From Coriobacteriales bacterium (GTDB lineage Bacteria > Actinomycetota > Coriobacteriia > Coriobacteriales > UMGS124): a DNA stretch of 64,000 nucleotides. The notes under the pieces are model-generated. The model was not told the origin of the DNA. It searched no databases and saw only the letters and a program-made list of their open reading frames with translations. How positions within the stretch are numbered: the first letter of the stretch is position 1; the number at the start of each line of letters is the position of its first letter. Below, in pieces: positions 12,021 through 62,194 of this stretch. The position numbers and the translations under genes were made by a program. The stretch is taken from contig JAFWFL010000005.1 in the NCBI GenBank assembly GCA_017515595.1, positions 4,516 to 68,515 of the forward strand. The letters run 5' to 3'.

Positions 12021-12035
12021 GCTGAGGAGTAACAC

Positions 12036-15265: not shown

Positions 15266-15351
15266 AAAGCCGGCTCTTTTACCTGTTATCTGCATTACTT
15301 TTATCTGTCATCGCGTCTGTAAAACAGCGCCCTCACCCCATGGAGGTTCCC

Positions 15352-27491: not shown

Positions 27492-27604
27492 GCGATCTTA
27501 AGAACAGTATCTTGAGCGTCTTTATTGACCGGGATAACATCTGGCTGGCAAAATAGCTATAATACGGTTAGGTGAATGGTAGTGGGGTAAAGGGGATTAG
27601 GTTT

Positions 27605-35167: not shown

Positions 35168-35180
35168 ATCATATTACCTG

Positions 35181-35884: not shown

Positions 35885-36068
35885 ACCATCCACCCTCCCT
35901 TGAGTGATTGACGCTTTTAATAGAGTACCACAATAAGACCAAACAGTCGCAGGAGATATCCAGTTAGTCACAATGGCTTGAATTGCCCGCCGGTACCTGT
36001 CAATCTACGGATGCGAGGCAAGAAACAGCAATGCTTTTAACCAAACATCCCAAGAAAGGGGACCAATT

Positions 36069-37805
36069 ATGAGCAAGAGTTTTGACCGCCGTTCATTCAT
36101 TACCGGAAGTGCAACCATGGCTGCAGCCGCAGCTCTCGGAACTTCTGCCATGGCGTTCGCCGCCGAGGAGAACTCTCTGGCAGCGTTTGTTGCACCCGAG
36201 ACGGCAACCGTCCGAGCCGGATATCTTTCATATTTTGACTGGCTGGGCGAGGCACCCGTTATTGATGAGTCGCTTATTGTTGACGAACAGGCAGTTGACG
36301 TTGTAATTGTCGGCGCCGGTGCTTCTGGTATGTGCGCAGCACTTTCTGCTGCCGAGAATGGCGCAAGCGTTGCTGTTATTGAGAAGCAGCCCGAAGACAT
36401 GTATATGTTCATAGGCCATGACATTGGTACACTGAACTCGGAATATGTTCTCTCCAAGGGCGGGCAGGCAATTGATACCGCAGAGTTTATTCAGGACTGG
36501 CAGCGCCGCAACGGAGACCGCACCAACTCTGCTCTTACCCGCATCTTTGCCGAGAATTCCGGTAAGGCTCTTGACTGGATTCTTTCTCACCTGTCCGACG
36601 AAATCATTGAGAACTGCGGTGTATTTGCGGTACCGTATCCCACTGAATATCCGGGTGCGATCTCGGGCTTCAAGGCATGGTGCTGCGCGCTTCACTTCCA
36701 GGACGACGGCACCGACTGGCCGGATGCCGCAAAAACGCTCATGGCAGCCGCCAAAGAACTTGGCGCAACATGGGACTTTGACACAGAAGCCGTTGTGCTC
36801 GAGAAGGACGGCGAGCGTGTAAGCGGCGTTATTGCTCAGCTTCCCGACGGTACCTACAAGCGCTATACCGCTGCTAAAGCCGTTATTCTTGCTGCCGGCG
36901 ATTACGGTGGAAACCCGCTTATGACCTTTGCTCTGAACGACGAGTACCGCAACTTTGTTGAGGTTCGCCGCCAGGATTGGTCAGAGATTCGTTCTATGAG
37001 CGGCCGCACCGGTGACGGACAAAAGATGGGCTGCTGGGCCGGTGCCGTTATGGAGCCGGGTCCCCGCGCTTCTATGGGTCGTGCCATGGGTGCCGGATGC
37101 TTTGGCGACCTCGCTATGATTCAGATGAACGCCAAAGGCAAGCGCTTTATGAACGAAGGCATCTTTGGTGTTTGGGGCAATTACTTCCAGCAAATGCGTC
37201 AGCCTATTGGCCGAATCTATGCAGTTATTGACAGCAAGTGGCGTGAATTCGTGCAGAAAAACGCTCCCGAGCATGTATATCCCGGTACCGGTGGCTGGCA
37301 TGACGGCGGCTTCCTGACAACACTCGACGAAGAGCTCCCCAAGGTTCTCGAAGCCGGCGCAGAAGGTTACAAGATTCGCGGTTGCGCAACCTATGCAGCC
37401 AATACGCTCGAAGAACTTGCCGATTACCTCGAGCTTGAGGGTGAGGTCCGCGACAACTTCTTTGCGAGCATCGAGCGTTACAACGAGCTTGCTGCCGCAG
37501 GCAAAGACACCGACTTTGGTAAGGACGCCTTCCTCATGGAGCCCATTAGCGAGCCGCCGTTCTATTGCTCAACTCTGAGCAACGAGAAGTTCAGCCTTGG
37601 TCTCGTAGAGCTCTCCGGTCTCGTAGTTGACGAGAACCAAAACTGCCTTACCGCCATGGGCGATCCCATCCCCGGCCTTTATACCGTAGGTAACAACTGC
37701 GGCGGACGTTTTGCCCTCCAGTATCACACCCCCATTGCCGGTATCTCCATGGGCTGGGCCACCACCATGGGCTACATGCTTGGCAAGACTGTAGCAGCCC
37801 TGTAA
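36069..37805 (+). CDS. Tat-exported FAD-dependent oxidoreductase (flavocytochrome/fumarate-reductase-like flavoprotein)
   Basis: The twin-arginine leader is MSKSFDRRSFITGSATMAAAAALG and the FAD motif is VDVVIVGAGASGMCAA. It is a paralog of 2498..4201. Confidence 0.8.
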   Translation: MSKSFDRRSFITGSATMAAAAALGTSAMAFAAEENSLAAFVAPETATVRAGYLSYFDWLGEAPVIDESLIVDEQAVDVVIVGAGASGMCAALSAAENGASVAVIEKQPEDMYMFIGHDIGTLNSEYVLSKGGQAIDTAEFIQDWQRRNGDRTNSALTRIFAENSGKALDWILSHLSDEIIENCGVFAVPYPTEYPGAISGFKAWCCALHFQDDGTDWPDAAKTLMAAAKELGATWDFDTEAVVLEKDGERVSGVIAQLPDGTYKRYTAAKAVILAAGDYGGNPLMTFALNDEYRNFVEVRRQDWSEIRSMSGRTGDGQKMGCWAGAVMEPGPRASMGRAMGAGCFGDLAMIQMNAKGKRFMNEGIFGVWGNYFQQMRQPIGRIYAVIDSKWREFVQKNAPEHVYPGTGGWHDGGFLTTLDEELPKVLEAGAEGYKIRGCATYAANTLEELADYLELEGEVRDNFFASIERYNELAAAGKDTDFGKDAFLMEPISEPPFYCSTLSNEKFSLGLVELSGLVVDENQNCLTAMGDPIPGLYTVGNNCGGRFALQYHTPIAGISMGWATTMGYMLGKTVAAL

Positions 37806-38000: not shown

Positions 38001-39080
38001 TCAACCTTGCTGCGAGCCAAACAGAAGGGTAGTACATTGGAAGTAAACTTTCGCGGGCTGCGGTTGTGTTGCGACCCATTTTGACTTGATGAAAGACGGG
38101 TTACATCTCATAAGGAGCATGAAGGTTTTGCCCCCTTCTCCTATAGGAAGCATGCACGAAATTGAAGCATCCGGGATACGGTGCCAGCGGGAGTCCACCA
38201 CACCCCAGGCCTCAAGGAGCCTGCATGCTTTCTCTCCGGGTGCATCCTTTGCGAACAAAACAGACGCATCGGAAGCATGTACATGTTTCAAGGTAAGGTC
38301 GGCCCCAAGAGTGTCTCCCACACCCCCTTCTACCGCATCAAGCTGGAGCTCAAGTATGAACGGCAGCGCTGCTAACGCCTGTAAGCGCTCGAGCATCACG
38401 CTGTCAAACGCCGTGAAACCTGCCCGGGTAAGGTCATCTGCAAGCGTGCGCGGGTCAGCCGCATAGTCTGCCTGGCGTTCTACAGATACAAATGCTCCCA
38501 CACGCACGCCTGAGCCCGGCCGGTTGGGGAAAAGTCCTAAATACCACGGTTGCCATGATCCCGGAAGACGGGCAAGCAGCTCTGAGGTGTAACCGTACGA
38601 ACCATCCGCCTCAAGCGATGTAAAGAAACCTCGCTCGTCAGCGAGCGGCTTACTCCCAAAGTTTACGTATGCGCCTACGTCACAGCTCCCATCACGCAGA
38701 TCATGAGCAAAACCTACTCCTACACCACCCGTCTCAACATTAAAATACCAGTCAAACATGGCTTGCATACCAAAACCGCAACCTGACTCAAAGTGATCGC
38801 CCGGGTCCACCTGTCCTCGGTTATAGTATACGTGCAGGTCAAAGCCAGGGTTGCCAAGAAGCGGTACCTCCATCCAATAGTTTGGGAAGTAGTCCCCAAT
38901 GAGGCTTTTTTGGTATGCACCGGCGGCCAGGGCAGAAGTATCACCCAGGAACTCCGTGCCACCGGAGTGTTTTGCGACAAGCCCCACCAGTGCACCAAAC
39001 GCTATCTCGCGAAATGTACCGTTCGGGTCAGCAAGCTCTTTTAGATCCCGCAGATTACCAATGTTCATCTCGTTACTCAT
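38001..39080 (-). CDS. Hypothetical protein (359 aa)
   Basis: A long ORF with coding-like composition. It is divergent from the gcv operon, and no family was recognised. Confidence 0.45.
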   Translation of the reverse strand: MSNEMNIGNLRDLKELADPNGTFREIAFGALVGLVAKHSGGTEFLGDTSALAAGAYQKSLIGDYFPNYWMEVPLLGNPGFDLHVYYNRGQVDPGDHFESGCGFGMQAMFDWYFNVETGGVGVGFAHDLRDGSCDVGAYVNFGSKPLADERGFFTSLEADGSYGYTSELLARLPGSWQPWYLGLFPNRPGSGVRVGAFVSVERQADYAADPRTLADDLTRAGFTAFDSVMLERLQALAALPFILELQLDAVEGGVGDTLGADLTLKHVHASDASVLFAKDAPGEKACRLLEAWGVVDSRWHRIPDASISCMLPIGEGGKTFMLLMRCNPSFIKSKWVATQPQPAKVYFQCTTLLFGSQQG

Positions 39081-39090: not shown

Positions 39091-39153
39091 TAACCCAGGG
39101 GACAGTTCTATGTGTTCCCTAAGCAAGAACACATAGAACTGTCCCCTGGGTTA
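39091..39153. repeat. Perfect 27-bp-arm palindrome in a divergent promoter region
   Basis: TAACCCAGGGGACAGTTCTATGTGTTC, loop CCTAAGCAA, GAACACATAGAACTGTCCCCTGGGTTA. It shares AGGGGACAGTTCTATGTG with 20357..20374. Confidence 0.85.
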
Positions 39154-39252
39154 CTTCAAGTTTTTCTTACTTATATAGTAATTTACAAGATGCGCTTCAC
39201 CATAAATAAGCATAATATGCTTATGTGTAAGTTTAGCAAAAAAGGAGTGCAC

Positions 39253-41901
39253 ATGGCAGAACTAAAGCGGACCCCCCTGTATGAGGCACATGTAGCTGCA
39301 GGGGCTACCATGGTTGACTTTGGCGGATGGGAAATGCCGGTTCAGTACCCAACAGGTATTGTGGCTGAGCATCTTTTTACCCGCAGCAGTTGCTCGCTGT
39401 TTGACGTCTCTCATATGGGGCGTTTCTTTGTAGAAGGCCCCGAGCGGGTCGCGTTTTTGCAGCATGTGCTTACGAGCAATGTTGAGGCGCTCGAGCTGGG
39501 TATGGCTCAGTACGGCATTATTTCTGATGCTCAGGGCTTTGCCATTGATGACGCCTATCTCTACCGTTTTGAAGAAGAGAAGCTCCTGCTCGTGGTCAAC
39601 GCTGCCAATACCCAGAAGGACTGGGATCACCTTTTGCCCATTTCTAAGCAGTTTGACTGCACGCTCACCAATGTTTCTGACGAATACGCCGCTATTGCGG
39701 TTCAGGGTCCGCTCAGCCGTGAACTCCTGACCGAGCTCGCAGGCGGAGTACAGCTCACCGAGCCCATGAAGAATGCTGTCGCTCTTGTTGAGCTTGAAGG
39801 CCATCCAACAGGCATTGCAAAAACCGGCTACACCGGAGAGCCGCTTGGATACGAGGTCTACATCGCAGCTAAAGACGTAGTCTGGCTGTGGAACCGCCTC
39901 ATAGAGATGGGCGCCAAACCGGCCGGCCTTGGCGCGCGTGACACGTTGCGTCTCGAGGCATGCCTGCCGCTCTATGGCCATGAGCTGGGCAATGACCCAA
40001 GCGGCGCACCTATCCCCATTTGCGCCATGCCGCTTTCGCGCTTTGCGGTAAGCCTTGCTCCGCAAAAGGGCGATTTCATTGGCCGAGAACCCCTCACCGC
40101 TCAGCGCGAAGCTTATAAGAAGCTTATGGACCGGGACTTCTCGGCACTTGACGTACTTCCCCGTTGCATTAAGCCCATTGCCCTCATTGACCGCGGCGTT
40201 ATTCGCGCGGGCATGGAGGTATACCGTGGCGACGAGTGCATTGGCTGGGTCACAAGCGGCACCATGGTTCCGTATTATAAGAGCTCCGGAGAAGGTCTTG
40301 AGACCGTCATCAGCAGCGATGATGCAAAGCGCTCCATTGGTTTTGCTTACATCGCAAGCGACGTGCTCGAAGATGACTTTGTTGAGGTAGACGTACGTGG
40401 CAAGCGACTCAAGGCCGTTATTGTGCCGTGCCACCTGCGCTCCGACGCTCCGCCTTATGCCCGTCCCATTATTTACGGCACCGAGCTTGCACCTCGTGCA
40501 TCCTTACATGAAACCCGTCTTGCAAATGCGATTGAGCTCATGGGCCGCGCCTGCGAAAACCACGTTTGGCGTCAGCAGCAATGCGTTAACCTTATTCCGT
40601 CCGAGAATACCCCGAGCCCTGCCGTACGTGCACTTTGCGCCGCAGACCCAAGCGGCCGTTATGCCGAGCACCGCAAGGCCAAGGCCTTCTATGACAAAGA
40701 CGTATTCTATTACCAGGGCACAGATTTTATTAACGAGGTAGAACAGCTCCTCGTTGACGAGATGCGCACCTACTTTGGCTGCACCGAGGTCGAAACCCGT
40801 GTTATCAGCGGCCAGATGTCAAACATGGCGGTCTTCTCGTCATTGCTTGACTGGAAAAACAGAGTTGACCGCAAGTCAGCTCCCCGCAGGCTGGGATACG
40901 TGCTCAACAACCATATTATTAAGGGCGGCCACCTCTCGGCACAGCCCATGGGAGCTTTGCGCGACTTTATTGCAACCGACCCCGCCACCGAGCGCCCGGC
41001 TGTTGTGAACTTCCCGGTTTGCGCAGATAACGAGTATAAAATTGACGTCGAGGCAACCAAACAAATCATTGAGCGCTACCGCCCCGAGCTCATCATCTTT
41101 GGCAAGAGCATGGTGCTCCACAAAGAGCCGGTCGCAGCTATTCGCGCGTTTGTTGACGAGGCTGGGATCCCTACCACCATCATGTATGACATGGCCCACG
41201 TCCTCGGCATTTTGGGACCGTCTTTCCAGAACCCCTTTGAGGAAGGCGCCGAGATTGTTACCGGTTCAACCCACAAGACTTTCTTTGGCCCGCAGCGCGG
41301 TGTTATCGCAACCAACTGGAAAGAAGAAGACCTCAAGTACGGCCTTTGGGAAACCATCGAGACCCGCACCTTCCCGGGCAGCGTCTCTAACCACCACCTG
41401 GGCACCCAGCTTGGCCTTCTCATGGCTGCGTACGAGATGAACGCATTCCGCAAAGAGTACCAAAGCGCCGTATGCGCAAATGCCCGCTCTTTCGCGCGTG
41501 CCTGCAAAGATGCCGGTCTTGACGTCGCAGGCGACGAGTCTATAGGCTTTACCGAGACACACCAGGTCATTGTGCGCGTTGGCTACGGCGCCGGCGCTGA
41601 AGTAGCACGCCGCCTTGAGAACAACAATATTATTGTGAACTACCAGGCAACCCCTGATGAAGAAGGCTTTACTGCCTCAGGCGCTTTGCGCATGGGCGTC
41701 TCTGAAATGACACGCTTTGGATTTGGCAAGGCAGAGTTTGAACGCCTCGCCGAGCTTATGGCTGCCTGCATTCTGGAGAACAAGAACGTTGCGGCCGAGG
41801 TATCTGAGCTGAGATCAGGATACACGCAAATGCACTATTGCTTTGAAGGCGCTGAGTTTGATGCCGCACTTAAGAAGCTCTTGCAAACCATTGGTTTATA
41901 A
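39253..41901 (+). CDS. gcvT: Fusion protein: glycine-cleavage T protein (aminomethyltransferase) plus a serine hydroxymethyltransferase-like domain
   Basis: AAAGGAG precedes the ATG at 39253. The N-terminal half has RTPLYEAHVAAGATMVDFGGWEMPVQY (GcvT). The C-terminal half has VNLIPSENTPSPAV and GSTHKTFFGPQRG, an SHMT PLP-lysine motif. The ORF is uninterrupted at 882 aa. Confidence 0.8.
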   Translation: MAELKRTPLYEAHVAAGATMVDFGGWEMPVQYPTGIVAEHLFTRSSCSLFDVSHMGRFFVEGPERVAFLQHVLTSNVEALELGMAQYGIISDAQGFAIDDAYLYRFEEEKLLLVVNAANTQKDWDHLLPISKQFDCTLTNVSDEYAAIAVQGPLSRELLTELAGGVQLTEPMKNAVALVELEGHPTGIAKTGYTGEPLGYEVYIAAKDVVWLWNRLIEMGAKPAGLGARDTLRLEACLPLYGHELGNDPSGAPIPICAMPLSRFAVSLAPQKGDFIGREPLTAQREAYKKLMDRDFSALDVLPRCIKPIALIDRGVIRAGMEVYRGDECIGWVTSGTMVPYYKSSGEGLETVISSDDAKRSIGFAYIASDVLEDDFVEVDVRGKRLKAVIVPCHLRSDAPPYARPIIYGTELAPRASLHETRLANAIELMGRACENHVWRQQQCVNLIPSENTPSPAVRALCAADPSGRYAEHRKAKAFYDKDVFYYQGTDFINEVEQLLVDEMRTYFGCTEVETRVISGQMSNMAVFSSLLDWKNRVDRKSAPRRLGYVLNNHIIKGGHLSAQPMGALRDFIATDPATERPAVVNFPVCADNEYKIDVEATKQIIERYRPELIIFGKSMVLHKEPVAAIRAFVDEAGIPTTIMYDMAHVLGILGPSFQNPFEEGAEIVTGSTHKTFFGPQRGVIATNWKEEDLKYGLWETIETRTFPGSVSNHHLGTQLGLLMAAYEMNAFRKEYQSAVCANARSFARACKDAGLDVAGDESIGFTETHQVIVRVGYGAGAEVARRLENNNIIVNYQATPDEEGFTASGALRMGVSEMTRFGFGKAEFERLAELMAACILENKNVAAEVSELRSGYTQMHYCFEGAEFDAALKKLLQTIGL

Positions 41902-41944: not shown

Positions 41945-42322
41945 ATGAAAATTCCTGCAGATCTGAGCTATTCAAAGACCCACGAGTGGGTGCGCATTGA
42001 GGGCGAAACCGCCATCATTGGCATCACTGATTACGCACAGGACGCCCTCGGCGATATTGTATTCATTAACCTTCCCGAGGTGGACGATACTCTTGAGGCT
42101 GGCGACTCGTTTGGCGACGTTGAATCTGTTAAAGCGGTAAGCGATGTCATGAGCCCTGTTGCAGGCACCGTAAGCGCAATCAACGAGGAACTCATTGATT
42201 CTCCCGAGCTTATGAACAGCGATCCGTACGGCGCATGGATTATCAAGCTCGAGGGCATTACCGTGCCCGATGACCTGCTTGATGCCGCTGCCTATGAGGC
42301 ATTTTGCGCAGAAAGCGAGTAA
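41945..42322 (+). CDS. gcvH: Glycine cleavage system H protein
   Basis: 125 aa with the lipoyl-lysine motif VESVKAVSDV. Confidence 0.9.
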   Translation: MKIPADLSYSKTHEWVRIEGETAIIGITDYAQDALGDIVFINLPEVDDTLEAGDSFGDVESVKAVSDVMSPVAGTVSAINEELIDSPELMNSDPYGAWIIKLEGITVPDDLLDAAAYEAFCAESE

Positions 42323-42328
42323 CATGTC

Positions 42329-43639
42329 ATGAGTTACGTGCCTTCTACCGAGGCACAACGCAAAGAGATGCTCGCGGCTGTTGGTGTGAGTGACTACCGC
42401 GAGCTCTATGCAGACGTGCCGCAACAAATGCTCCTCACGGAGCCCCTCGATATTCCGCCGGGAATGGGCGAGCTCGAGGTAAGCCGCGCCATGAATGCGC
42501 TTGCCAACAAAAACGTGCAGTACACAACCATACTGCGCGGAGCCGGTGCATATGATCACTATATCCCGGCTGCCGTTCGCTCCATCCCCGCAAAAGAAGA
42601 GTTTCTTACTGCATACACTCCCTACCAGGCCGAGATGAGCCAGGGCGTGCTGCAATCCATTTTTGAATACCAAACCATGATCTGCGAGCTTACCGGCATG
42701 GATGTCTCGAATGCCTCAGTGTATGACGGCGCCACCGCCGCCGCAGAAGCCGCAGCTATGTGCCGTGATCGCAAGCGGAGCGTAACACTTGTCTCGGCCG
42801 CAGCACACCCGGATGTTATTAATACCATACGTACCTATTGCTACGGTACCGGCGACGAGATGCGCGTTATACCTGCAAAGGACGGGCACACTGACCTCGA
42901 CGCTCTTCGCGAAATGCTTGGAAGCGATGTCTCCTGCGTGTACATTCAGCAGCCCAATTTCTACGGGCTCTTAGAGGACGCCACAGCCATTGGCGAAGCA
43001 GTGCATGAGGCCGGCGCGCTTTATGTCATAGGTGCAAACCCCATCTCGCTTGGCATCCTCAAAACGCCGCGTGAATGCGGGGCAGACATCGCCGTGGGCG
43101 AAGGCCAGCCGCTTGGATTGCCGCTTGGGTTTGGCGGACCTTACCTGGGCTTTATGGCTGCTACCACCAAGCTCATGCGCAAGCTCCCCGGCCGCATTGT
43201 GGGCGAGACTGTTGACACCGCGGGCAATCGCGCATACGTTCTTTCGCTCCAAGCCCGCGAACAGCACATTCGCCGCGAAAAGGCGAGCAGCAACATCTGC
43301 TCAAACGAGGCACTCTGCGCCTTAACCGCAAGCGTTTATATGGCGGTTATGGGACCTCAGGGCCTTGCTGAAGTCGCACGTCAGTGCACGGCAAAAGCCC
43401 ATTACCTTGCCGAGAAACTCACTGCCATTGATGGCATTGACCTCGTATATCCCGGTGCATTCTTCCATGAGTTTGTGACAACTCTCCCGCGCCAAAACGA
43501 GGTCTTGAGCGCCTTGGAAACCGCCGGCATCTTGGGAGGTCTTCCTCTTGATGAAGGCGTTCTCTGGTGCGTGACCGAGAAGGCCAGCCGCGATGATCTG
43601 GACCGCGCCGTAAGCATTGTGAAGGAGGTGCTCGCATAA
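42329..43639 (+). CDS. gcvPA: Glycine dehydrogenase (aminomethyl-transferring) subunit 1
   Basis: Size, position and the YTPYQAEMSQG motif are typical of GcvPA. Confidence 0.9.
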   Translation: MSYVPSTEAQRKEMLAAVGVSDYRELYADVPQQMLLTEPLDIPPGMGELEVSRAMNALANKNVQYTTILRGAGAYDHYIPAAVRSIPAKEEFLTAYTPYQAEMSQGVLQSIFEYQTMICELTGMDVSNASVYDGATAAAEAAAMCRDRKRSVTLVSAAAHPDVINTIRTYCYGTGDEMRVIPAKDGHTDLDALREMLGSDVSCVYIQQPNFYGLLEDATAIGEAVHEAGALYVIGANPISLGILKTPRECGADIAVGEGQPLGLPLGFGGPYLGFMAATTKLMRKLPGRIVGETVDTAGNRAYVLSLQAREQHIRREKASSNICSNEALCALTASVYMAVMGPQGLAEVARQCTAKAHYLAEKLTAIDGIDLVYPGAFFHEFVTTLPRQNEVLSALETAGILGGLPLDEGVLWCVTEKASRDDLDRAVSIVKEVLA

Positions 43640-45063
43640 TGGAGCTTATTTTTGAGAAAAGCGTTGCCGGCCGTGCATGCGACATACTCGGCGCCTGCGA
43701 TTGCGACTATGTTGACCTCCCTCAGGATGTTTTGCGCGCACAGCCGCCCAAACTCCCCGAGCTTGCCGAGGTAGACGTAACGAGACATTATACCGAGCTC
43801 TGCCACCATGTGCATGGTGTTAACTGCGGGTTTTATCCGTTAGGCTCCTGCACCATGAAGTATAACCCTCGTATAGATGAGGAAATCGCAGCATTACCGG
43901 GATTCCAGCGCATACACCCGCTGGCTCCCCAGCACGCTGTCACAGGCTGCCGGGAAGTTCTTGACCTGGCACGCAGCTACCTCTGCAAAATCTCCGGCAT
44001 GGACAATATGACCTTCCAGCCTGCAGCCGGCGCACACGGTGAGTTTACCGGCGTTCTGCTCATTAAACAATATCACGACAGCCGCGGCGATACCGCGCGC
44101 ACCAAGATTATTGTCCCTGACTCCGCCCACGGCACCAACCCCGCAACCGCAGCTATGTGCGGTTACGAGGTAGTAAATATACCCTCCGCACCGGACGGAT
44201 GTGTTGATCTTGACGCGTTGGCAAACGCATTGGGCGATGATACAGCTGGTCTCATGCTTACGAACCCCAACACGGTAGGCTTGTTTGACCAGAACATTTT
44301 AAAGATCACCGCTATGGTTCATGAAGCAGGCGGCCTTTGCTATTATGACGGCGCCAACCTTAACGCCGTTATGGGTGTAGTACGCCCCGGTGACATGGGC
44401 TTTGACTGCATCCACATGAACCTCCACAAAACCTTTGCCACTCCTCACGGCGGAGGCGGACCGGGAGCATGCGCCGTTGGGTGCAAAGAGTTCCTGAGCG
44501 AATTCCTGCCTAAGTCAGCCCTTATGGACGAGGCCGGACATCTGCAGGTACGGAGCTTTGCCGGCAACTTCCTTGTTGTTGTTAGAGCGCTCACCTACCT
44601 TATGTCAATGGGACGCGAAGGCATTCCCGAGGCAGCACATAATGCCGTGCTCAATGCCAACTATCTCATGCGCCGCATCCAGGGCACTTTTGAGCCTGCA
44701 TTTGACCGCATTTGCATGCATGAGTTTGTGCTCGACCTCTCTGAGTTTAAGAAAGAAACCGGAGTCTCCGCACTCGATGTTGCGAAGTCGCTTATTGACT
44801 ACGGCATGCATCCACCAACAATGTACTTCCCCATGATTGTGCACGAAGCGCTTATGCTCGAACCAACCGAGACCGAGAGCAAAGAGACACTCGACTGGGC
44901 AGCCGGCGTATTTGCCGAGCTTTACGAGCTTGGTAAAACCAATCCTGCCGTCATGCATGAAGCGCCTCATCATGCGCAGATTGGCCGCCCTGATGAAGTT
45001 CGTGCTTCCCGTACCCCTGTGTTAAGATGGTATCCGCAAGAAGAAGGTTCAGCAGCACTATGA
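43639..45063 (+). CDS. gcvPB: Glycine dehydrogenase (aminomethyl-transferring) subunit 2
   Basis: NLHKTFATPHGGGGPG is the PLP-lysine region of GcvPB. The start overlaps the gcvPA stop. Confidence 0.9.
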   Translation: MELIFEKSVAGRACDILGACDCDYVDLPQDVLRAQPPKLPELAEVDVTRHYTELCHHVHGVNCGFYPLGSCTMKYNPRIDEEIAALPGFQRIHPLAPQHAVTGCREVLDLARSYLCKISGMDNMTFQPAAGAHGEFTGVLLIKQYHDSRGDTARTKIIVPDSAHGTNPATAAMCGYEVVNIPSAPDGCVDLDALANALGDDTAGLMLTNPNTVGLFDQNILKITAMVHEAGGLCYYDGANLNAVMGVVRPGDMGFDCIHMNLHKTFATPHGGGGPGACAVGCKEFLSEFLPKSALMDEAGHLQVRSFAGNFLVVVRALTYLMSMGREGIPEAAHNAVLNANYLMRRIQGTFEPAFDRICMHEFVLDLSEFKKETGVSALDVAKSLIDYGMHPPTMYFPMIVHEALMLEPTETESKETLDWAAGVFAELYELGKTNPAVMHEAPHHAQIGRPDEVRASRTPVLRWYPQEEGSAAL

Positions 45064-47456
45064 TAAACAAGCTACAACTGGTTTATGGAACGAGTACAAA
45101 CCCTTACGAGAACCTTGCGCTCGAGCAGTGGCTCTTAGAGAAGGCCGATGCCAACAGCTGCACATTGTTCTTATGGCAAAATGCTCAAACCGTCGTGATT
45201 GGACGCAACCAAAATGCCTGGCGTGAGTGCAATGTTGAGCAGCTCCGCGCAGACGGAGGGTGCCTGGCCCGAAGGCTCTCGGGCGGAGGTGCTGTGTATC
45301 ATGACCTGGGGAACCTGAACTATACGTTTTTGATGCCGCGCGAAGACTACAATATCGCCCAGCAGCTTAAAGTTATTACCCGGGCATGTGCTCTTCTTGG
45401 AATCGAGGTTAAACGCTCCGGACGCAACGACCTTACCGTCAACGGACAAAAAATCTCGGGCAGTGCATTCTGCCATCATGAGGGACGTTCGTTCCATCAT
45501 GGAACCCTGCTCGTAAACACTGACATGGACGCCATGGAGCGCTACCTTAATCCCTCAAGAGCAAAACTTGAGGCCAAGGGCGTCGAGTCGGTAAAATCGC
45601 GGGTTACCAATCTTACCGAGGTACTGCCCACACTTACTGTGGATGACCTCAAAGATGCGCTTGCTGTCGCATTTGAGCAGGTATATGGTCTCCCGGTAGC
45701 CATTTTGGAAGCCGATGACATCAATACTGCGGCTGTAGCCAAACTTAAAGAGCACTTTGAGAGCTGGGACTGGAACTACGGCGCCCAAAAACAGCCCTTT
45801 ACTTATGAGTTGGAACGCCGCTTTAGCTGGGGAGAAATACAACTCGAACTTGAGATAACAAAGGGTTTCATCACTGATGCACGGGTTTATACCGATTCTC
45901 TTGACTTAGAAATAGCCGAGACCCTGCAAAAGACCCTCAATGGCTGTCGCTTTGATGCTGACAGCATCTCAGGCGCATTAGCCAAAGGTGAACTGAGTCC
46001 ATTTATCGCTATTGACATCATACGCCTGTTGAACAGCAGTATTACGCCATCTCCCAAGAGTGAAGAAGAGAGCACCGCGAAAGACTACGGTCTCATGGTG
46101 ATAGGAGCAGGTCCCGGAGGCTATACTGCCGCACTCAAAGCAGCAGAGCTGGGCATTGAAACCGCTCTCGTCGAGAAGGACCTTATTGGCGGTACCTGCC
46201 TTAACCGGGGCTGTGTCCCCACAAAAACCCTGCTCCATGCCTCTGAGGTGTACGGAGATATTGCGGCAGGCGCAGCGTTTGGCATTCATGCCGAGAACGT
46301 CTCTTTAAACATGGACGAGCTCTTCTCGTATAAAGAGCAAGTTGTAGAAACTCTGCGCAAAGGGATCGAAGGACTGCTGAGCCGGGCAAAAGTTGATGTT
46401 ATTCCCGGTAAAGCAACAATTTTGAAGCCGGGTGTTGTGGAAGTAACTCCGCAAGAGGGCTCCGCAGAAAAGGCAACTTATACCACAGAGAACATCCTCA
46501 TTGCAACGGGTTCGGCTCCGGCGCGGCCGCCCATACCCGGGCTTGACCTGCCCGGCGTCATGACGTCTGACGAACTCCTCGCAAAAACCGACCGTCTCTT
46601 GGACTCCCTTGTCATCATTGGAGGCGGCGTCATTGGAGTTGAGTTTGCCAGCTTCTACGAAGCGCTTGGCATCCAAGTCACCATAGTCGAAGGCCTCGAC
46701 CGCCTGCTTCCCACGCTCGACAAAGAGCTGGGTCAAAGTATTGCAGCCATTCTCAAAAAACAGGGTGTCGAAATATACACCAAATCAATGGTACAAAAAA
46801 TTGAACAAGAAGACGCCGGCTTAGCAGTGCATTTTGCTTGCAACGATGACCAAAAGTGCATAAGAGGCGAAGCGGTTCTTTGTGCGGTAGGACGAACCCC
46901 CTATCACAGAGACCTGTTTGCCCCCGAGCTTGAGCCCAACATGCAGGGCCGCGCACTCGCGGTAGACAGCAAGTTTAAAACCAACATTCCCGGCATTTAT
47001 GCGATTGGCGATGTCTCCTCGCCCGTTCAGCTTGCCCATGTAGCTGCGGCACAAGGAACTGCTTGTGTGGAGATGATCGCAGGCCACAAGAGCAGTGTTG
47101 ACCTGAATGTCATCCCCAGCTGTGTATATTGCTCCCCCGAGATTGCCTCGGTAGGGCTCACAGAAGCTCAGGCAAAAGAGGAGGGCATTCCTGTTAAGGT
47201 TGGTAAATGCGCTATGGGCGGCAATGCCCGTACTCTTATTGCAGGCGCAGGCCGCAGCTTTATGAAGATTGTTGTTCATGCCGAGAATAACCGCATCTTG
47301 GGCGCGCAGCTCATGTGCACCAATGCAAGCGACATGATCTCTCAAATAAGCGTTGCAATTGCCAACAACATGACCACTGAGCAACTTCTGAAGGCTATGC
47401 GTCCCCACCCCACCTTTGAAGAAGCTCTCACTCAGGCTCTTGAAGGTCTCAAGTAA
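45060..47456 (+). CDS. Fusion protein: lipoate-protein ligase A domain plus dihydrolipoyl dehydrogenase (L protein)
   Basis: The ATG at 45060 overlaps the gcvPB stop (ATGA). The N-terminal part carries RRLSGGGAVYHDLGNLNYTF (LplA). From about 46080 it carries GAGPGGYTAA...GGTCLNRGCVPTK (redox disulfide) and a C-terminal HPTFEEA dimerisation motif. Confidence 0.85.
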   Translation: MINKLQLVYGTSTNPYENLALEQWLLEKADANSCTLFLWQNAQTVVIGRNQNAWRECNVEQLRADGGCLARRLSGGGAVYHDLGNLNYTFLMPREDYNIAQQLKVITRACALLGIEVKRSGRNDLTVNGQKISGSAFCHHEGRSFHHGTLLVNTDMDAMERYLNPSRAKLEAKGVESVKSRVTNLTEVLPTLTVDDLKDALAVAFEQVYGLPVAILEADDINTAAVAKLKEHFESWDWNYGAQKQPFTYELERRFSWGEIQLELEITKGFITDARVYTDSLDLEIAETLQKTLNGCRFDADSISGALAKGELSPFIAIDIIRLLNSSITPSPKSEEESTAKDYGLMVIGAGPGGYTAALKAAELGIETALVEKDLIGGTCLNRGCVPTKTLLHASEVYGDIAAGAAFGIHAENVSLNMDELFSYKEQVVETLRKGIEGLLSRAKVDVIPGKATILKPGVVEVTPQEGSAEKATYTTENILIATGSAPARPPIPGLDLPGVMTSDELLAKTDRLLDSLVIIGGGVIGVEFASFYEALGIQVTIVEGLDRLLPTLDKELGQSIAAILKKQGVEIYTKSMVQKIEQEDAGLAVHFACNDDQKCIRGEAVLCAVGRTPYHRDLFAPELEPNMQGRALAVDSKFKTNIPGIYAIGDVSSPVQLAHVAAAQGTACVEMIAGHKSSVDLNVIPSCVYCSPEIASVGLTEAQAKEEGIPVKVGKCAMGGNARTLIAGAGRSFMKIVVHAENNRILGAQLMCTNASDMISQISVAIANNMTTEQLLKAMRPHPTFEEALTQALEGLK

Positions 47457-47569
47457 CATATGGAACACAAAGGGTCAGGAATTGTGTATAATAGAGCGTA
47501 AGAAACCAGCCGGCTGCCTTGTATAACCAAAAGAGCAAAAACGCTGGTTGCGACTCAAAAGGAGTGTAT

Positions 47570-47776
47570 ATGGCAGATCAAAACAACGACATCAATAAGC
47601 AAAAGTTCGACGAGGTCTTGAGTACGTTAAGCGAAGATCAGCGCGAGGAGGCCCGTGGCCTCAAGACTCCTGAAGAAATGTTGGAGTTTGCTCAAGAAGT
47701 GGGCGTTGTTCTTACCCCTGAACAGCTGGATCAGATCAGTGGCGGCGGCTGGTGGCCTTGCGGAGGATATAAATAA
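47570..47776 (+). CDS. Nif11-like / double-glycine leader peptide precursor (68 aa), predicted core GWWPCGGYK
   Basis: AAAAGGAG lies 5 nt upstream of the ATG at 47570. The leader ends LTPEQLDQISGG, which fits the LSxxELxxIxGG export-leader consensus. A 9-aa C-terminal core follows. Confidence 0.65.
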   Translation: MADQNNDINKQKFDEVLSTLSEDQREEARGLKTPEEMLEFAQEVGVVLTPEQLDQISGGGWWPCGGYK

Positions 47777-47787
47777 ACCGGTAAGGT

Positions 47788-48753
47788 ATGATGCAAATGC
47801 AGCCTTTGCTTCCATATTGCCATGACCCGTATCACGGGCTCACCACCCTCAATCCCGCCCACGTGGCGGGGTTGTCTTTAGGGGATGCTATAGCACAGGC
47901 CGAGCAGGAACTTGGATGCGTGCCCAAGGGACGTTTGGCAGACCTCGTTATGCTGTTTGTCACTGCGTGTATGTTGCAAAGGCTTGAGGACCGGCAGGGT
48001 GAACCACTCCTCGTTGTAAAAGGCGGTCTTGTCTCGCAAGACCTGCTTGGTGAGCGGGCACGCTATACGCCTGATGTCGATGCCGCTTTGCGCTGTAGCA
48101 CCAGCGAATTTTTGCAACGCCTTCCTGAAGCGTTTAGCAAACCCTGGGGACAGGTACATGCGACACTTGGAGAAATTATCGAGTCGCCGTACGGTTGGTG
48201 TCCCTATGAAATGCTTGTGGTCCATGTTTTACTTGAAGCTGACGGGTGCGAGCCACAAGATGTAACGGTAGATATCCTCTGCGGACCTACCGCAAAGAAC
48301 TTCAGTTCACGTTGTAGCAGTGTACCTGCGCTTTCAGGTGTGGGGCTCCCCGAGCCCCACACATTTTGGACTATCACACCGGAAGCCGTAGTTACCGAGA
48401 AGATCGCTGCCTGCGTTGATGTGAACGTATTCGATCTCGATGACAAAAAGCTGCTCCCCATTCATGCCGCTCGCGCCAAGCATCTGGTTGATCTTGTGTG
48501 GTTGTCGCGCATGTGCGATGCGGGGATTCTCTCAAATAAGAAGGTCGTGGACGAGGTTGAAGGACTTCGCCGCTGTTCAACACCGGTGCGTGAAGAACGC
48601 GGTTTCCAGCCGCTTCCTCGCATGATGCGCATTAAAGTTTGGGAGGGCTGGCGCTTTGTTTATCTTGGCGCAGCCTTACAGACAGGTCTCAATATCACTA
48701 TGGACGAGGCTGTACAAGAAGTGAACGGCTGGCTTGAGCGAATTGGGCTGTAG
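47788..48753 (+). CDS. AbiEii/DUF1814-like nucleotidyltransferase-fold protein
   Basis: LLVVKGGLVSQDLLGERARYTPDVDAAL resembles the GG(T/S)..-R.T.D(I/L)D NTase motif. EKIAAC...RAKHLVDLVWL resembles the C-terminal K..A...R..D..D motif. The start is 12 nt after the precursor stop. Confidence 0.5.
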   Translation: MMQMQPLLPYCHDPYHGLTTLNPAHVAGLSLGDAIAQAEQELGCVPKGRLADLVMLFVTACMLQRLEDRQGEPLLVVKGGLVSQDLLGERARYTPDVDAALRCSTSEFLQRLPEAFSKPWGQVHATLGEIIESPYGWCPYEMLVVHVLLEADGCEPQDVTVDILCGPTAKNFSSRCSSVPALSGVGLPEPHTFWTITPEAVVTEKIAACVDVNVFDLDDKKLLPIHAARAKHLVDLVWLSRMCDAGILSNKKVVDEVEGLRRCSTPVREERGFQPLPRMMRIKVWEGWRFVYLGAALQTGLNITMDEAVQEVNGWLERIGL

Positions 48754-48771
48754 CTCCTCTCCGGAAGGGTC

Positions 48772-49785
48772 ATGATGCTATCTGACATCATACGTCTCAA
48801 AGACAATCGTGTGTCCTGGAAGATCCCGTCATTGTTTGATAACGACTGGGTTGCGCTGCACCTGTCACATGCGCTTTCTCCCATACTGAATAAACCCCTT
48901 TTTGACATCGCCTATGGAAGCCCGCTGTGTGCCTGGGCGGGCGGACGCCCTCCGCGCGTGACAACCACATTGTCTGAAGAAGAGGTACGAACCCGGCTTG
49001 AGGCTTATTTGGCAGTTGGTGCAAGATGCGCGTTTACTTTTTCACACATCAATGCCGGAGCGTACACAGACGACCCCTATTGCAACATGCTGTTGTCATT
49101 AATCGAGGAATACCAAGGACAGGCAATTGTAGCTGATGATGCTCTGGCACGTTATATACGACGCCGGCACCCCGCATTGAAGCTTGTGTGCTCAAACGTG
49201 AGGGTTGTGCTTGATCACCACAACGGTTTTCTGGGTCAGGACGAGAATACCTATTATCACAGCTTACGCGGCCTCTATGACGAAGTCGTAGTTCGTACAG
49301 AGGCACTGCTCGAGAGCGGTATCTCAAGCGAACTGCAGGACATGGCTGACCATATAGAGCTCATCGTAAATGAGAGATGTGCACGCGATTGCCCCTATGC
49401 GGCCGAACATATAGCCGCCATGGCTCAGGCTACAGCCAGCGCGCGCGACCGCGACCCGGCAGAACCTCAGCCCGGTTGCATCTATGACCAAAGACGCAGC
49501 AAACCAACTGAGCTCGTAGATAACATCTATGTGCCGGATGAGCGCCGCAAATATCTTGCGGACAAAGGATTCACAAAATTCAAAATCCAAGGACGTGGAG
49601 CATCTCCCGTTTGGTTCGCGAATACCCTGCTCACCGAGATATTGTTCGATGGAGACAAACTTGCCGGTCAAGAAGACATGCAAGACATCATCACGCCCAT
49701 CGCACTTCTCCAGCTATTCAACCCTGATTCAGAAGCCCGTCTGGCCATCCCCAAAAGTGGGCGTGACATAAACCGGGGATTATAG
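48772..49785 (+). CDS. Conserved-cysteine protein of unknown function, paralog of 19218..20081
   Basis: It shares blocks with 19218..20081 (see that entry). It lies 18 nt after the NTase gene and is followed by a terminator. Confidence 0.55.
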   Translation: MMLSDIIRLKDNRVSWKIPSLFDNDWVALHLSHALSPILNKPLFDIAYGSPLCAWAGGRPPRVTTTLSEEEVRTRLEAYLAVGARCAFTFSHINAGAYTDDPYCNMLLSLIEEYQGQAIVADDALARYIRRRHPALKLVCSNVRVVLDHHNGFLGQDENTYYHSLRGLYDEVVVRTEALLESGISSELQDMADHIELIVNERCARDCPYAAEHIAAMAQATASARDRDPAEPQPGCIYDQRRSKPTELVDNIYVPDERRKYLADKGFTKFKIQGRGASPVWFANTLLTEILFDGDKLAGQEDMQDIITPIALLQLFNPDSEARLAIPKSGRDINRGL

Positions 49786-49788
49786 CGC

Positions 49789-49826
49789 CAAGGGCTTCTC
49801 GGCATATTGATGCCGAGAAGCCCTTG
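49789..49826. terminator. Bidirectional terminator (REP-like stem)
   Basis: CAAGGGCTTCTCGGCAT, loop ATTG, ATGCCGAGAAGCCCTTG, between convergent genes. Confidence 0.8.
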
Positions 49827-49859
49827 CAATTTCCTGCTATCAGGCGATAACAATATACG

Positions 49860-56738: not shown

Positions 56739-57440
56739 ATGTCAACAAGAGGCCTTATCTTTTATCTGGTCCTCGAGGCGCTGCTGCTTTGTTTGATTGA
56801 AACCGGCATTTATATGAGCTGGAATGGACAGATTGTTAATACTCTTATGTATGCCGCGATCCTGATCAACACAATAGTTGTGGCTTATCGCTTTTTCCGC
56901 TTGAGAGCAGATCAGAGAAGCGCTCATGATAAGTTTATTGCCTATGCAATCTTTGTAACGGCGGTAGCGGATATCTTTTTGACATTAATTGGCAGCGCTG
57001 ACACATTTCTTCCCGGAGTTATCTTATTCTGCATGGTACAGATAATTTATGCCATATACCTTTATCCCACCGCGAAATCGCTCCTGATCCGAGTAGCTCT
57101 CTTCGCGATATGTCTGTTGTTGTTAAAGATTTTTGAAATGCTGAGTCTGTCAAATGCTTTTGGTTTATTGGATATCAGCCTTCTTCTGGTTAATGTCATC
57201 ATAGCCTGGACTTTAACAAGAGTTAAAATACCATTGTTGTTCCGGATAGGAATCACTCTGTTCCTCTGCTGTGATCTTTCTATTGCACTCAGAATTTTTA
57301 CAACAGGAGAAGCGTTTGGAATTATTGGCCTCCTTGTCTGGCTCTTCTATATTCCTTCTCAAGTATTGATCACATTGTCATATCTCAGCAGCACTAGTGT
57401 GTCAAGGAGTGTGTCAGAGAACCGACCCTTGACACACTGA
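56739..57440 (+). CDS. YhhN/lysoplasmalogenase-like polytopic membrane protein
   Basis: 233 aa with about 8 TM segments. Intramembrane acidic motifs (AVADIFL, LCCDLSIAL) resemble the YhhN family. This is a tentative call. Confidence 0.35.
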   Translation: MSTRGLIFYLVLEALLLCLIETGIYMSWNGQIVNTLMYAAILINTIVVAYRFFRLRADQRSAHDKFIAYAIFVTAVADIFLTLIGSADTFLPGVILFCMVQIIYAIYLYPTAKSLLIRVALFAICLLLLKIFEMLSLSNAFGLLDISLLLVNVIIAWTLTRVKIPLLFRIGITLFLCCDLSIALRIFTTGEAFGIIGLLVWLFYIPSQVLITLSYLSSTSVSRSVSENRPLTH

Positions 57441-59549
57441 GCTGCGGACAATGGATTTTGAGAGCTGGTAGGTTACGATGAGGTACACGGCGTAGATCGC
57501 TACTATGGTAAATGCCGAGATGCCTATGAGACCTGAGGGGTTAACGCCAAGCTCGGCAAAGAGGGTTGCAGAGACTACACTTACTGCACAGATTGTATGG
57601 CTGGCTGCCAGTACAAGCGGAGCACAGAAGTATACGATGGTCTGGATACGGAGCGAACCAAGGATTTGCTTCATGTCACAGCCAAGGTCAGAGAGACGGC
57701 GGTAGCGCTGAAGGCTGTCGGCAGTCTCGGAGAGCTGCTGGATTGCGAGAACCGCGGCGGTGGCGACAAGCATAACAAAGCCAATGTAAAGCGCGAGGAA
57801 CGTAATGACCATTTTGAGACCGCTTGCCTGCTCTGCCATAGCGTGGCCTGTGTAGACATTTGTTACCGGCCAGGGAGTCCTTTGGAATTGGTCCTCGATG
57901 CCATCAGTAAGAGGAGTCTTGCCATCTTTGAGAGGAACTGCTTTGGCAAGTATCTTTGACAAAGCCGAGTCGCCCTGTGTACGATCTCCGTTGTACATTA
58001 TGTTAAAGTGCGTGTAAGCAGGAAACTCCGTATGTTCGCGAAGGCTTGTTACTACCTCATCAGGCACAATAATTTGGAGCGCAACATCGCTCATTGCCGT
58101 GGTATCGAGCGGAACACATTGCAGCGACCCATATCCATACAGCATTATACCTGCTATCTCGAGACTCACATCGTTTTTACTCATGGCTTTGCCCAGGTCA
58201 TCATAACCTACAATTGTGTTATCGATGGCAAACTGATTGGCTGCAAGCTGAACACCTGTTTCACCAATGAGCTCGCAGCAGGCATTGTACTGGCTCTCCG
58301 AGATTACTTTAATTTCGGTTTTTCCCATACTCGCAAGCGTTTGGGCATCTTTCATAGCTTCAGCACCCTGAATTTGATCAAGCAATTCCTGGTAGTTTAC
58401 ACCGGCAGGCCAAAAGTCAGTTTGCGCGCTTTTACGGACAACGCTGTCCCAATTATCCGCGCGGCTTGACAGACACGCTTCAATGTCACCGTTAAACTCT
58501 CGGTATGTATCTTGCCACGAAGGATCGGGCTTATAGAAAAGCTCTGCCGAGGCAACAATGGATGCATCATAGCGTGTGGTCTGCTCAATGTTGCCGGCAA
58601 AGAGTTCGAGAAGTCCCATGCCCACAGAGGCTGTGGTGAGTGCGAAGAACAACATTACACACACGACACTCATGCTGACAAACGCCGTATTTACCTTGCT
58701 CGCAATCTGCCGCACCGTAAACATGCGAATGCCCTTAAGATAAACACCTTTGGCGTGGGTTAGGGCAAAGATCACAAATCCGGCGACGGACCAAAAGAAT
58801 AAAAACGTGCCAATAATCATGAGCACGGTTGCTGCCCAAAAATGCACGTCTGCCTGCTGTAATCCGTTAATGGAAAGCTGCCAGTAAGCGCAGCCGAGGA
58901 TAACGATGGCCACAACAAATCCCACTACACGCAGGGGCACATGCACCATACCAACATGCTCATTCGCTTCCCGGGCAGAAAGCAGGGTAATAAGCTTGCA
59001 CCGGCGAATATAAATGACATCTACCAGCGCTGATACCATAAACACCACAACAAAACAAAGCACCGTGAGTCCAATGGCATCTGGAGAAACTATAAAACGG
59101 TATTTGGTCATAGTGGTACCCATGAGCGCAGCTGTCGCAAACGAGAGACCCTGTGACATGGCAATACCCAGCGCAAGACCCACCACAAGCGAGGCAAGTC
59201 CCACAAGGATCGTCTCGCACAAAAGCACACGGCTCACACGCCCGGCGCTCATGCCCAGCAGCAGATACGTACCAAATTCACGACGACGACGTCTGATGAG
59301 GAACCGGTTGGCATAGACTACCAAAAAGCCCAAAACACACGCTACAACAATAGAAAACATTCTGATGAGCAACGTCAGTAAATCGAGCATACGCGCGCTG
59401 TCTGCTGACATTGCATCAAACAGCACAGTTTGACTCTTGATCGCATTGAACGCATAAAACAGAGCAACGCCCAAAACAACGGTAATAAAGTAAATAGCGT
59501 AGTCGCGGCCTGCTCGCTTGACGTTTCTCAAGGCCAGCTTAACGAGCAT
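57414..59549 (-). CDS. BceB-type (FtsX-domain) ABC transporter permease
   Basis: It starts at MLVKLALRNVKRAGRDY, has about 10 TM segments and carries a large extracytoplasmic domain. It overlaps the ATPase gene by 11 nt. Confidence 0.8.
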   Translation of the reverse strand: MLVKLALRNVKRAGRDYAIYFITVVLGVALFYAFNAIKSQTVLFDAMSADSARMLDLLTLLIRMFSIVVACVLGFLVVYANRFLIRRRRREFGTYLLLGMSAGRVSRVLLCETILVGLASLVVGLALGIAMSQGLSFATAALMGTTMTKYRFIVSPDAIGLTVLCFVVVFMVSALVDVIYIRRCKLITLLSAREANEHVGMVHVPLRVVGFVVAIVILGCAYWQLSINGLQQADVHFWAATVLMIIGTFLFFWSVAGFVIFALTHAKGVYLKGIRMFTVRQIASKVNTAFVSMSVVCVMLFFALTTASVGMGLLELFAGNIEQTTRYDASIVASAELFYKPDPSWQDTYREFNGDIEACLSSRADNWDSVVRKSAQTDFWPAGVNYQELLDQIQGAEAMKDAQTLASMGKTEIKVISESQYNACCELIGETGVQLAANQFAIDNTIVGYDDLGKAMSKNDVSLEIAGIMLYGYGSLQCVPLDTTAMSDVALQIIVPDEVVTSLREHTEFPAYTHFNIMYNGDRTQGDSALSKILAKAVPLKDGKTPLTDGIEDQFQRTPWPVTNVYTGHAMAEQASGLKMVITFLALYIGFVMLVATAAVLAIQQLSETADSLQRYRRLSDLGCDMKQILGSLRIQTIVYFCAPLVLAASHTICAVSVVSATLFAELGVNPSGLIGISAFTIVAIYAVYLIVTYQLSKSIVRSSVCQGSVL

Positions 59550-60342: not shown

Positions 60343-60425
60343 GATTATTACTCCTTGTCTTCTCAGCACTACAAATTGATGATGCTATGCTAACAAGACA
60401 TTTGCTTGGGTACCATCGATTCCGC

Positions 60426-62137: not shown

Positions 62138-62194
62138 CCGGTTCCCGTCTCCAATGTCCAAATTCAACGCAATTCACAACCAACAGAACTCAAC

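Follow-up and report, generated by a model that had tools for sequence, protein, structure and literature searches.

The three-gene cassette and its precursor peptide

A cassette consisting of a short peptide gene and two longer genes lies on the forward strand of a 64,000-nucleotide stretch, termed here the window, of the metagenome-assembled genome (MAG) of a Coriobacteriales bacterium of the gut or rumen. The peptide open reading frame (ORF) of 68 amino acids (47570-47776) is followed by gene 2 (47788..48753), coding for a 321-residue nucleotidyltransferase (NTase) of the MenT3/AbiEii family, and by gene 3 (48772..49785), coding for a 337-residue divergent triosephosphate isomerase (TIM) barrel of the U32 superfamily with a conserved Cys/His metal site. 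Only 11 nt separate the peptide stop codon from gene 2 and 18 nt separate gene 2 from gene 3. An initial annotation of the window, made from its sequence, had delimited the same small ORF, its ribosome binding site 5 nt upstream and genes 2 and 3, and all of these are present; the Shine-Dalgarno sequence AAAAGGAG occupies 47557..47564 (+), with the start codon 5 nt further on, at 47570. The NCBI records for the trio are MBR2834200.1 (peptide, hypothetical), MBR2834201.1 (gene 2, AbiEii/AbiGii toxin family, there started at 47797 to give 318 residues) and MBR2834202.1 (gene 3, hypothetical). The peptide, the NTase and the U32-like enzyme are inherited together under purifying selection, and each of the two enzyme families also occurs beside other peptides with a double-glycine (GG) leader.

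The peptide reads MADQNNDINKQKFDEVLSTLSEDQREEARGLKTPEEMLEFAQEVGVVLTPEQLDQISGG and then GWWPCGGYK. Alignment of 46 peptides, hidden Markov models (HMMs) and codon analysis assign the first 59 residues (47570..47746, +) to a helical, Nif11-like leader region ending in LTPEQLDQISGG, and cluster comparison assigns the last nine, together with the stop codon (47747..47776, +), to an aromatic core rich in Gly. A profile search yielded 47 related peptides, 46 of which keep the junction motif and could be aligned on it. Leucine at -12, glutamate at -9, glutamine at -8 and glycine at -2 occur in 46/46 of these, leucine at -7 in 45/46, glycine at -1 in 44/46 and isoleucine or valine at -4 in 43/46. C39 protease domains read leader positions -4, -7, -12 and the GG (PMC6363468), and hydrophobic residues at these three positions ahead of GG are found in the window peptide and are conserved in 43-46 of its 46 relatives. 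The fuller double-glycine consensus proposed initially fits in part: L-12, L-7, I-4 and the GG agree with it, whereas position -11 is threonine and the glutamate stands at -9 rather than -8. The sequence after the GG is unrelated between peptide groups. With a conserved leader, a near-invariant GG and a variable cargo, the small ORF is, as judged by comparative sequence analysis, a genuine double-glycine-leader precursor gene, as had been proposed.

The leader shares with Nif11/GG precursors such as ProcA, LahA1-9 and ComC/BlpC its length and helical character, the L(-12)...L(-7)..I(-4).GG spacing and the combination of a conserved leader with a hypervariable core, and the known precursors of this kind are often encoded away from their exporter. 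In addition, there is a resemblance to the consensus of Nif11 leaders in its K[TS]PEE[ML]L.FA...G..LT.EQL segment. Membership of the Nif11 family, claimed at first, was nevertheless not borne out. The window peptide gave no match at E<=1 to TIGR03798 or PF07862, and its orthologue and relatives scored 13.9-18.6 bits (E 0.0016-0.049) against TIGR03798, whose curated cut-off is 32.3 bits, and E 0.002-0.039 against PF07862, whose cut-off is 23.8 bits; the PF03047 threshold is likewise not reached. The best, sub-threshold HMM matches of the window peptide are to the pheromone leaders BlpC (E 0.0026) and ComC (E 0.018), and the PCAT1 substrate CtA matches weakly (E 0.36-1.4). The window peptide thus appears to work in the manner of a Nif11/GG leader while lying outside the formal models. 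The peptide further differs from Nif11/GG precursors in its core of nine residues and in having no LanM, radical S-adenosylmethionine (radical-SAM) or cyclodehydratase partner; to our knowledge neither of the enzyme kinds encoded by genes 2 and 3 has been reported with such leaders.

The cargo attached to this leader falls into several groups. Cores of nine residues comprise GWWPCGGYK, HWYNG[QR]GGY(A) and PWYNGRGGY, cores of 12-16 residues comprise H[TN]WECSNAFSGR and YVWECSNAFSGGATGA, and the others are Cys-rich, zinc-ribbon-like cargos of roughly 45 residues or short charged cores. The HWYNG[QR]GGY(A) sister type is represented by 11 clusters that vary only at H/P1, Q/R6 and the terminal A, and the identical GWWPCGGYK core also occurs on a leader of the other lineage (P0044); each type keeps its core all but constant on a large variety of leaders. 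Constant between the two types are W2, an aromatic residue at position 3 and the C-terminal GGY. A WW..C motif, whose conservation the initial annotation had proposed to check, is not the constant part of the core, as the Cys is absent from the HWYNG type. A separate, widespread set of 93-residue peptides with the same GG leader and zinc-ribbon-like cargo is found on 23 contigs (L021-L023, e.g. L021 8001-8282) between YjbR-domain and MgtC genes, with no exporter or maturase nearby.

Codon analysis of the leader between the window and L003, one of two other loci with the complete trio, gives proportions of synonymous (pS) and nonsynonymous (pN) differences of 0.77 and 0.18. Between the two core types the core has pN 0.59 as against 0.18 for the leader, and has thus diverged faster. 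The ratio of nonsynonymous to synonymous substitution (dN/dS) is 0.22 for the peptide (L003 vs L018) and 0.06-0.14 for gene 2; the range across all three genes, 0.06-0.22, indicates purifying selection. These values bear directly on a chance adjacency, in which the small ORF would be unconnected to its neighbors or would not be a gene. Such an accident might be thought easier in a family that is rare and known from metagenome assemblies only, but we consider it highly improbable: the ORF is conserved in 13 peptide clusters with pS far above pN, and is for these reasons more than chance, the trio is intact at three loci and a peptide-NTase pair is found at a fourth (L018), and the flanking genes differ from locus to locus.

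The two enzymes

Gene 2 passes the PF08843 cut-off of 22.5 bits with 43.5 bits (E 4.7e-11), matches the PADLOC AbiEii model with E 2.3e-35 and aligns through residues 32-315 with the PDB sequence of M. tuberculosis MenT3/Rv1045 (E 6e-10), so that its description as AbiEii-like in the initial annotation was sound. Four NTase motifs, K78-G-G, T94-x-D96-x-D98, E204-K-I and K231-H-L-x-D-L, show no variation among six homologues, and T94 aligns with S78 of MenT3, the conserved catalytic residue that is auto-phosphorylated. An N-terminal extension, PY.HDPYHGL, is also invariant and lies outside the MenT3 alignment. Because both the family match and the catalytic motifs are intact, gene 2 very probably encodes an active NTase. 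An AlphaFold2 model built from a three-sequence alignment had a mean predicted local distance difference test score (pLDDT) of 57, too poor for use, and a metagenome scan with the NTase alignment added only one extra locus.

That gene 2 belongs in good standing to a toxin family makes a serious rival, which the initial annotation had not considered, of a toxin-antitoxin (TA) or abortive-infection module, in which gene 2 would be a MenT/AbiEii toxin acting on tRNA, the small helical protein would replace AbiEi and gene 3 would be an accessory or a passenger. Gene 2 has full-length homology to MenT3 and the AbiEii toxins of type IV/VII TA and AbiE defense systems, with motifs I-IV, a conserved Ser/Thr regulatory residue (T94) next to the DxD and a small upstream gene that is tightly coupled to it, by the 11-nt gap in the window and by a 4-nt overlap of the peptide and NTase genes at a sister locus (L012). 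The MenA antitoxins belong to several unrelated families, one of them small and helical (PMC11375011), and the two-helix MenA1 serves MenT1. Unlike these systems, gene 2 has no AbiEi-like or MenA-like gene beside it, neither neighbor matches PADLOC or Pfam antitoxin models, and the small protein resembles neither AbiEi, MenA1 nor any PDB antitoxin. The nearest annotated plasmid relative of gene 2 does belong to a canonical AbiEi-AbiEii pair, mobility is a feature of the cassette and the L005 locus, which has a gene 3 relative, lies in a TA-rich region; but PADLOC detects AbiEii and no other system component, and a scan of viral contigs did not find the cassette.

The structure of the small protein also enters this comparison. 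A peptide that stands without the NTase (L013, L014) would fit an orphan antitoxin, whereas what is conserved in the small protein is a GG leader of the secretion type, common to dozens of peptides with unrelated cargo far from any NTase, and a discrete nine-residue tail of two fixed types is hard to explain in an antitoxin. Gene order is reversed between the two groups of loci, and a conserved metalloenzyme of 337 residues under purifying selection would be unexpected in a TA pair. The pairing of gene 2 with a secretion-leader peptide and a metalloenzyme, like its N-terminal extension, sets it apart from MenT3 and AbiEii, and on balance the TA module, though the main rival, is judged unlikely.

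Gene 3 itself has no Pfam (E<=1), NCBIfam or PADLOC match and does not reach the PF01136 gathering threshold of 22.4 bits. Its AlphaFold2 model (pLDDT 91.7) finds by Foldseek the U32 peptidase Mk0906 (5d88) as top hit, with E 3.8e-6, probability 1.0 and TMt 0.61, and this is the sole PDB match at E<=1e-3. PF01136 is matched at E<=0.1 by 57 of 118 diverse distant relatives of gene 3, the best with E 1.5e-8; any other Pfam family turns up in the set three times at most. With one E. coli sequence each of UbiU and UbiV as template, which is too thin for the purpose, hhalign gave no significant alignment of the gene 3 family (probability ~3% or less), and a search of the gene 3 profile against PDB sequences returned only noise (TcdB N-terminus, E 0.26). 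Among the 118 sequences, 97% or more keep C203, C207 and C236 and 87% keep H213, and C53 is conserved in 100% of 36 close relatives, which gives the pattern C53-X149-C203-X3-C207-X28-C236 plus H213. The U32 Cys motif is CX6CX15CX3/4C and that of UbiV CXnCX12CX3C, its first Cys far upstream (PMC6747719, PMC11574389); the spacing in gene 3 matches neither.

Given the modeled fold and the PF01136 matches of its relatives, together with the different Cys spacing, gene 3 is on sequence and model evidence a divergent branch of the U32 superfamily and not a member of PF01136. The U32 guess of the initial annotation therefore stands at the superfamily level and falls as a PF01136 hit of the protein itself. 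With the U32 oxidases UbiU/UbiV, RlhA and TrhP, gene 3 shares the TIM barrel, a K-[IL]-x-G-R motif and conserved cysteines, and with UbiV a distant first Cys ligand, to which may be added an anaerobic host and an aromatic candidate substrate; it differs from them in falling short of PF01136, in its C-Xn-CX3C-X28-C plus His arrangement and in having no C-terminal U32 domain. The conserved site probably binds an iron-sulfur (Fe-S) cluster. The characterized U32 proteins (UbiU/UbiV, RlhA, TrhP) are [4Fe-4S] enzymes that hydroxylate aromatic rings independently of O2, with prephenate as the proposed oxygen donor (PMC6747719, PMC11574389).

An indexed search found 38 relatives of gene 3, all unannotated and all from Coriobacteriia, and an exhaustive profile search extended the family to 1,107 clusters at E<=1e-3. 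On a Lachnospira eligens plasmid (L019, NC_012780.1) a hypothetical relative with 27% identity (8869-9786) ends a cobalamin operon, directly after cobyric acid synthase. There are thus hints that the wider gene 3 family includes small-molecule enzymes.

Distribution and surroundings of the cassette

The co-occurrence that the initial annotation had proposed to test is borne out, and the trio is found in other genomes. It recurs intact, with 68-76% identity and with the GG and Trp kept, at L003, where it lies between GNAT and acyltransferase genes, and at L004, where a redoxin gene follows, the flanking genes at the three loci being quite different; at L018 the peptide gene immediately precedes that of the NTase. 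Wherever a contig has the length to show it (window, L003 and L004), the trio is complete. The three genes accordingly appear, by comparison of these loci, to form a conserved, horizontally mobile cassette that moves as a unit. A sister NTase with 38% identity to gene 2 is coupled at L012, L016 and L017 to a peptide that joins the same leader to a WECSNAFSG core; these loci have the two genes in reverse order and lack gene 3.

Relatives of gene 3 with about 50% identity lie at L005 and L006 between two GG-leader peptides. At L005 the precursors flanking the gene 3 relative lie at 9685-9915 and 6409-6651; in one, a clearly Nif11-like leader precedes a Cys/Ser-rich core, SSWYCASVCPSNCSCDSECIIDTGSSCLLNA, and the other has a zinc-ribbon-like core of 63 residues with C-terminal YYYYYDGKVYIEK, and no lanthipeptide synthetase is found on the 13-kb L005 contig. 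In L009, a rumen actinobacterial MAG, a gene 3 relative split by a frameshift lies 2 kb from a pair of Peptidase_C39-ATP-binding cassette (ABC) exporter genes and 3.3 kb from an upstream GG peptide (elements at 4354-4686, 7962-8911 and 10561-15506). The export block there consists of a 198-residue protein with no Pfam match, a Peptidase_C39-ABC transporter and one further ABC transporter, and a TIR-domain protein is encoded nearby.

A further protein recurs around these genes. A 359-residue protein of the window (38001-39080, -), which has no Pfam or PDB sequence match, has homologues with 30-35% identity (E 1e-47 to 1e-54): one lies at L007 (1130-2185), with a gene 3 relative 2 nt upstream of it, and two are in tandem at L005 (10073-12096) beside a GG-leader peptide, while L003 and L004 have none. 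Possibly this protein represents a fourth family tied to such peptide loci. A HIT-family gene lies immediately upstream of the sister NTase (L012 3-356; L016 509-910), with a gap of 3 nt in L016. A HIT hydrolase was considered as a cassette partner that might hint at a nucleotide conjugate, but it is confined to the sister loci, where it is 97% identical as compared with 79% for the NTases, and is probably a housekeeping neighbor. The acyltransferase_3 genes found downstream at L003 and at L013 share no homology and were set aside as a shared partner, and the uncharacterized proteins beside gene 3 relatives at L005, L007 and L009 show no similarity that would make them hidden AbiEii-like NTases.

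In the window the trio is preceded by the gcv/lplA-lpd operon, which encodes glycine cleavage enzymes and an LplA-Lpd fusion, and is followed on the opposite strand by a flavin mononucleotide (FMN) reductase gene. A TATAAT hexamer read in the sequence at 47487..47492 (+), from which the initial annotation took the trio for its own transcription unit, is a possible, unverified -10 element of the cassette; a consensus promoter scan of the + strand found no full -35/-10 (sigma-70-type) pair, and the promoter call rests on a lone hexamer. Between the convergent genes lies a strong, unstranded hairpin (49787..49827; -36.2 kcal/mol, z = -6.5, 0/200 shuffles as stable). The hairpin that had been expected to terminate the unit is therefore there; no T-run follows it, for which reason it was missed by the terminator scan, and it is probably a bidirectional terminator. 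An Rfam scan of the whole window gave no matches.

Two unusual fusions stand in the glycine-cleavage region, a 929-residue GcvT-serine hydroxymethyltransferase (39112-41901) and the 809-residue fusion of lipoate-protein ligase with dihydrolipoyl dehydrogenase (45027-47456). Elsewhere in the window, genes for an FtsX-type permease, an ABC ATPase, a histidine kinase and an OmpR-type regulator lie in a row at 57414-62167 (-), an arrangement that we take to resemble the Bce-like modules for sensing and detoxification of peptide antibiotics. Within 432-37805, several FAD_binding_2 reductase genes (2498-4201, 29867-31843 and 36069-37805) each lie near a LuxR-type regulator gene (6170-7858, 27572-29236), a molybdopterin oxidoreductase cluster occupies 8028-16056 and a Fic/DOC protein gene 32301-33236.

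A candidate peptide-modification pathway

The reading of the cassette that we favor, with somewhat less than even confidence, is a new pathway for a short, secreted, post-translationally modified peptide, either a peptide made on the ribosome and then modified post-translationally (RiPP) or a modified pheromone. Secreted GG-leader peptides are already known; their pairing with these two enzymes is not known. That the enzymes act on the peptide is inferred. In such a pathway the leader would dock the precursor on both enzymes. The NTase would move a nucleotidyl or phosphoryl group from a nucleoside triphosphate to a hydroxyl near the C-terminus of the core, candidate acceptors being the Tyr of GGY in the window group and the Ser of FSG in the sister group; precedents would be the transfer of nucleoside monophosphate to a 3'-OH by this fold and the Ser/Thr autophosphorylation of MenT1 and MenT3. 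The U32-like enzyme would oxidize the conserved Trp/Tyr pair without O2, by hydroxylation or an aromatic cross-link, with UbiU/UbiV, RlhA and TrhP as precedents, and an aromatic-rich peptide would suit their known aromatic targets. A C39-peptidase ABC exporter encoded elsewhere would cut after the GG and export the product.

Other ribosomal peptides receive a group derived from a nucleotide or phosphate at their C-terminus or close to it, among them microcin C and the phosphorylated or glycosylated lasso peptides paeninodin and pseudomycoidin. Microcin C is modified at its C-terminal Asn by the ThiF/E1-like MccB, lasso tailoring employs enzymes resembling HPr kinase, and in pseudomycoidin an NTase-fold tailoring enzyme is involved. 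We know of no AbiEii/MenT-family enzyme and no GG leader in the microcin C and lasso systems.

Several findings weigh against a modification pathway. The characterized members of the gene 2 family are tRNA-targeting toxins, and the literature searched holds no link of U32-like or AbiEii-family proteins to RiPPs or ribosomal peptides. The Nif11 and ComC models are not reached at their curated thresholds. A Pfam scan of the 46 larger ORFs of the window, which comprise every non-nested ORF of 150 residues or more other than 41972-42673(-), found no C39 exporter, LanM/LanB, YcaO or radical-SAM protein, in agreement with the initial annotation, and the class-defining maturases (LanB/C/M/KC, radical-SAM-SPASM, YcaO, ATP-grasp, lasso B/C) are absent from the trio and from these 46 ORFs. 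The NTase-peptide pair occurs without gene 3 in L016, the sister-group peptide without any nearby NTase in L013 and L014, and gene 3 homologues without peptides in L001, L002 and the L. eligens cobalamin operon, so that the enzymes are not obligatorily linked to peptides. Finally, the family is tiny, with 38 gene 3 proteins in one search and three NTase clusters.

A second alternative is that the peptide is secreted unmodified, as a class II-type bacteriocin or a ComC/BlpC-like pheromone exported by a distant C39 transporter, and that the enzymes are co-inherited for immunity, regulation or a small-molecule pathway. The sub-threshold matches to pheromone leaders, the many orphan peptides that carry the same leader with no enzymes nearby and the occurrence of two discrete core types on mixed leaders, which resemble pherotypes, are consistent with it, as are the small-molecule contexts of distant gene 3 relatives (the cobalamin operon and flavin adenine dinucleotide (FAD) reductase genes). 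Nine residues would, however, be unusually short for a bacteriocin, the tight three-gene operon is kept across different genomic contexts and the pairing of NTase and peptide persists at 38% identity.

Genes for an AgrC/ComD-type kinase and a LytTR regulator, which could serve a pheromone, lie 12 kb upstream of the trio in the window and 5 kb upstream of it in L003. In the window the histidine kinase gene (PF14501) adjoins that of the response regulator (33836-35971, -), whose LytTR domain continues in another frame (about 35170-35460), as a frameshifted gene or an assembly error. The two systems are only 31-39% identical between window and L003, as against 68-76% for the trio, and they are for this reason not co-inherited with it; the two-component system was accordingly rejected as a part of the cassette, the frameshift in the window regulator being a further point against it. 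Secretion of an unmodified peptide is judged quite improbable, a little more so than the TA module.

The favored modification pathway can be worded more specifically, as a new class of RiPP from strict anaerobes in which the MenT/AbiEii NTase O-nucleotidylylates or phosphorylates a Tyr or Ser close to the C-terminal end of a nine-residue core bound to its leader and the U32-like Fe-S enzyme adds an O2-independent hydroxyl or cross-link on the adjacent Trp/Tyr, to yield a secreted peptide-nucleotide or modified pheromone in two "pherotypes". In this full form the proposal is speculative and rather unlikely. The comparative evidence is firm and the chemistry that may be involved unusual, in a system that is rare and metagenome-only and whose mechanistic steps are all inferred.

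If the TA reading were true, a MenT-type toxin under the control of a secretion-leader peptide would represent a new type of antitoxin and could link toxin activity to peptide export. If instead the enzymes act on the peptide, two families would be newcomers to RiPP biosynthesis: the AbiEii/MenT NTases, so far seen only as toxins directed at tRNA, and the U32-like Fe-S TIM barrels, whose known reactions are confined to the hydroxylation of quinones and RNA. The unannotated gene 3 family of roughly 1,100 clusters would gain its first functional handle, and a new peptide chemistry fitted to the anoxic gut and rumen would be indicated, such as peptide nucleotidylylation or O2-independent aromatic oxidation.

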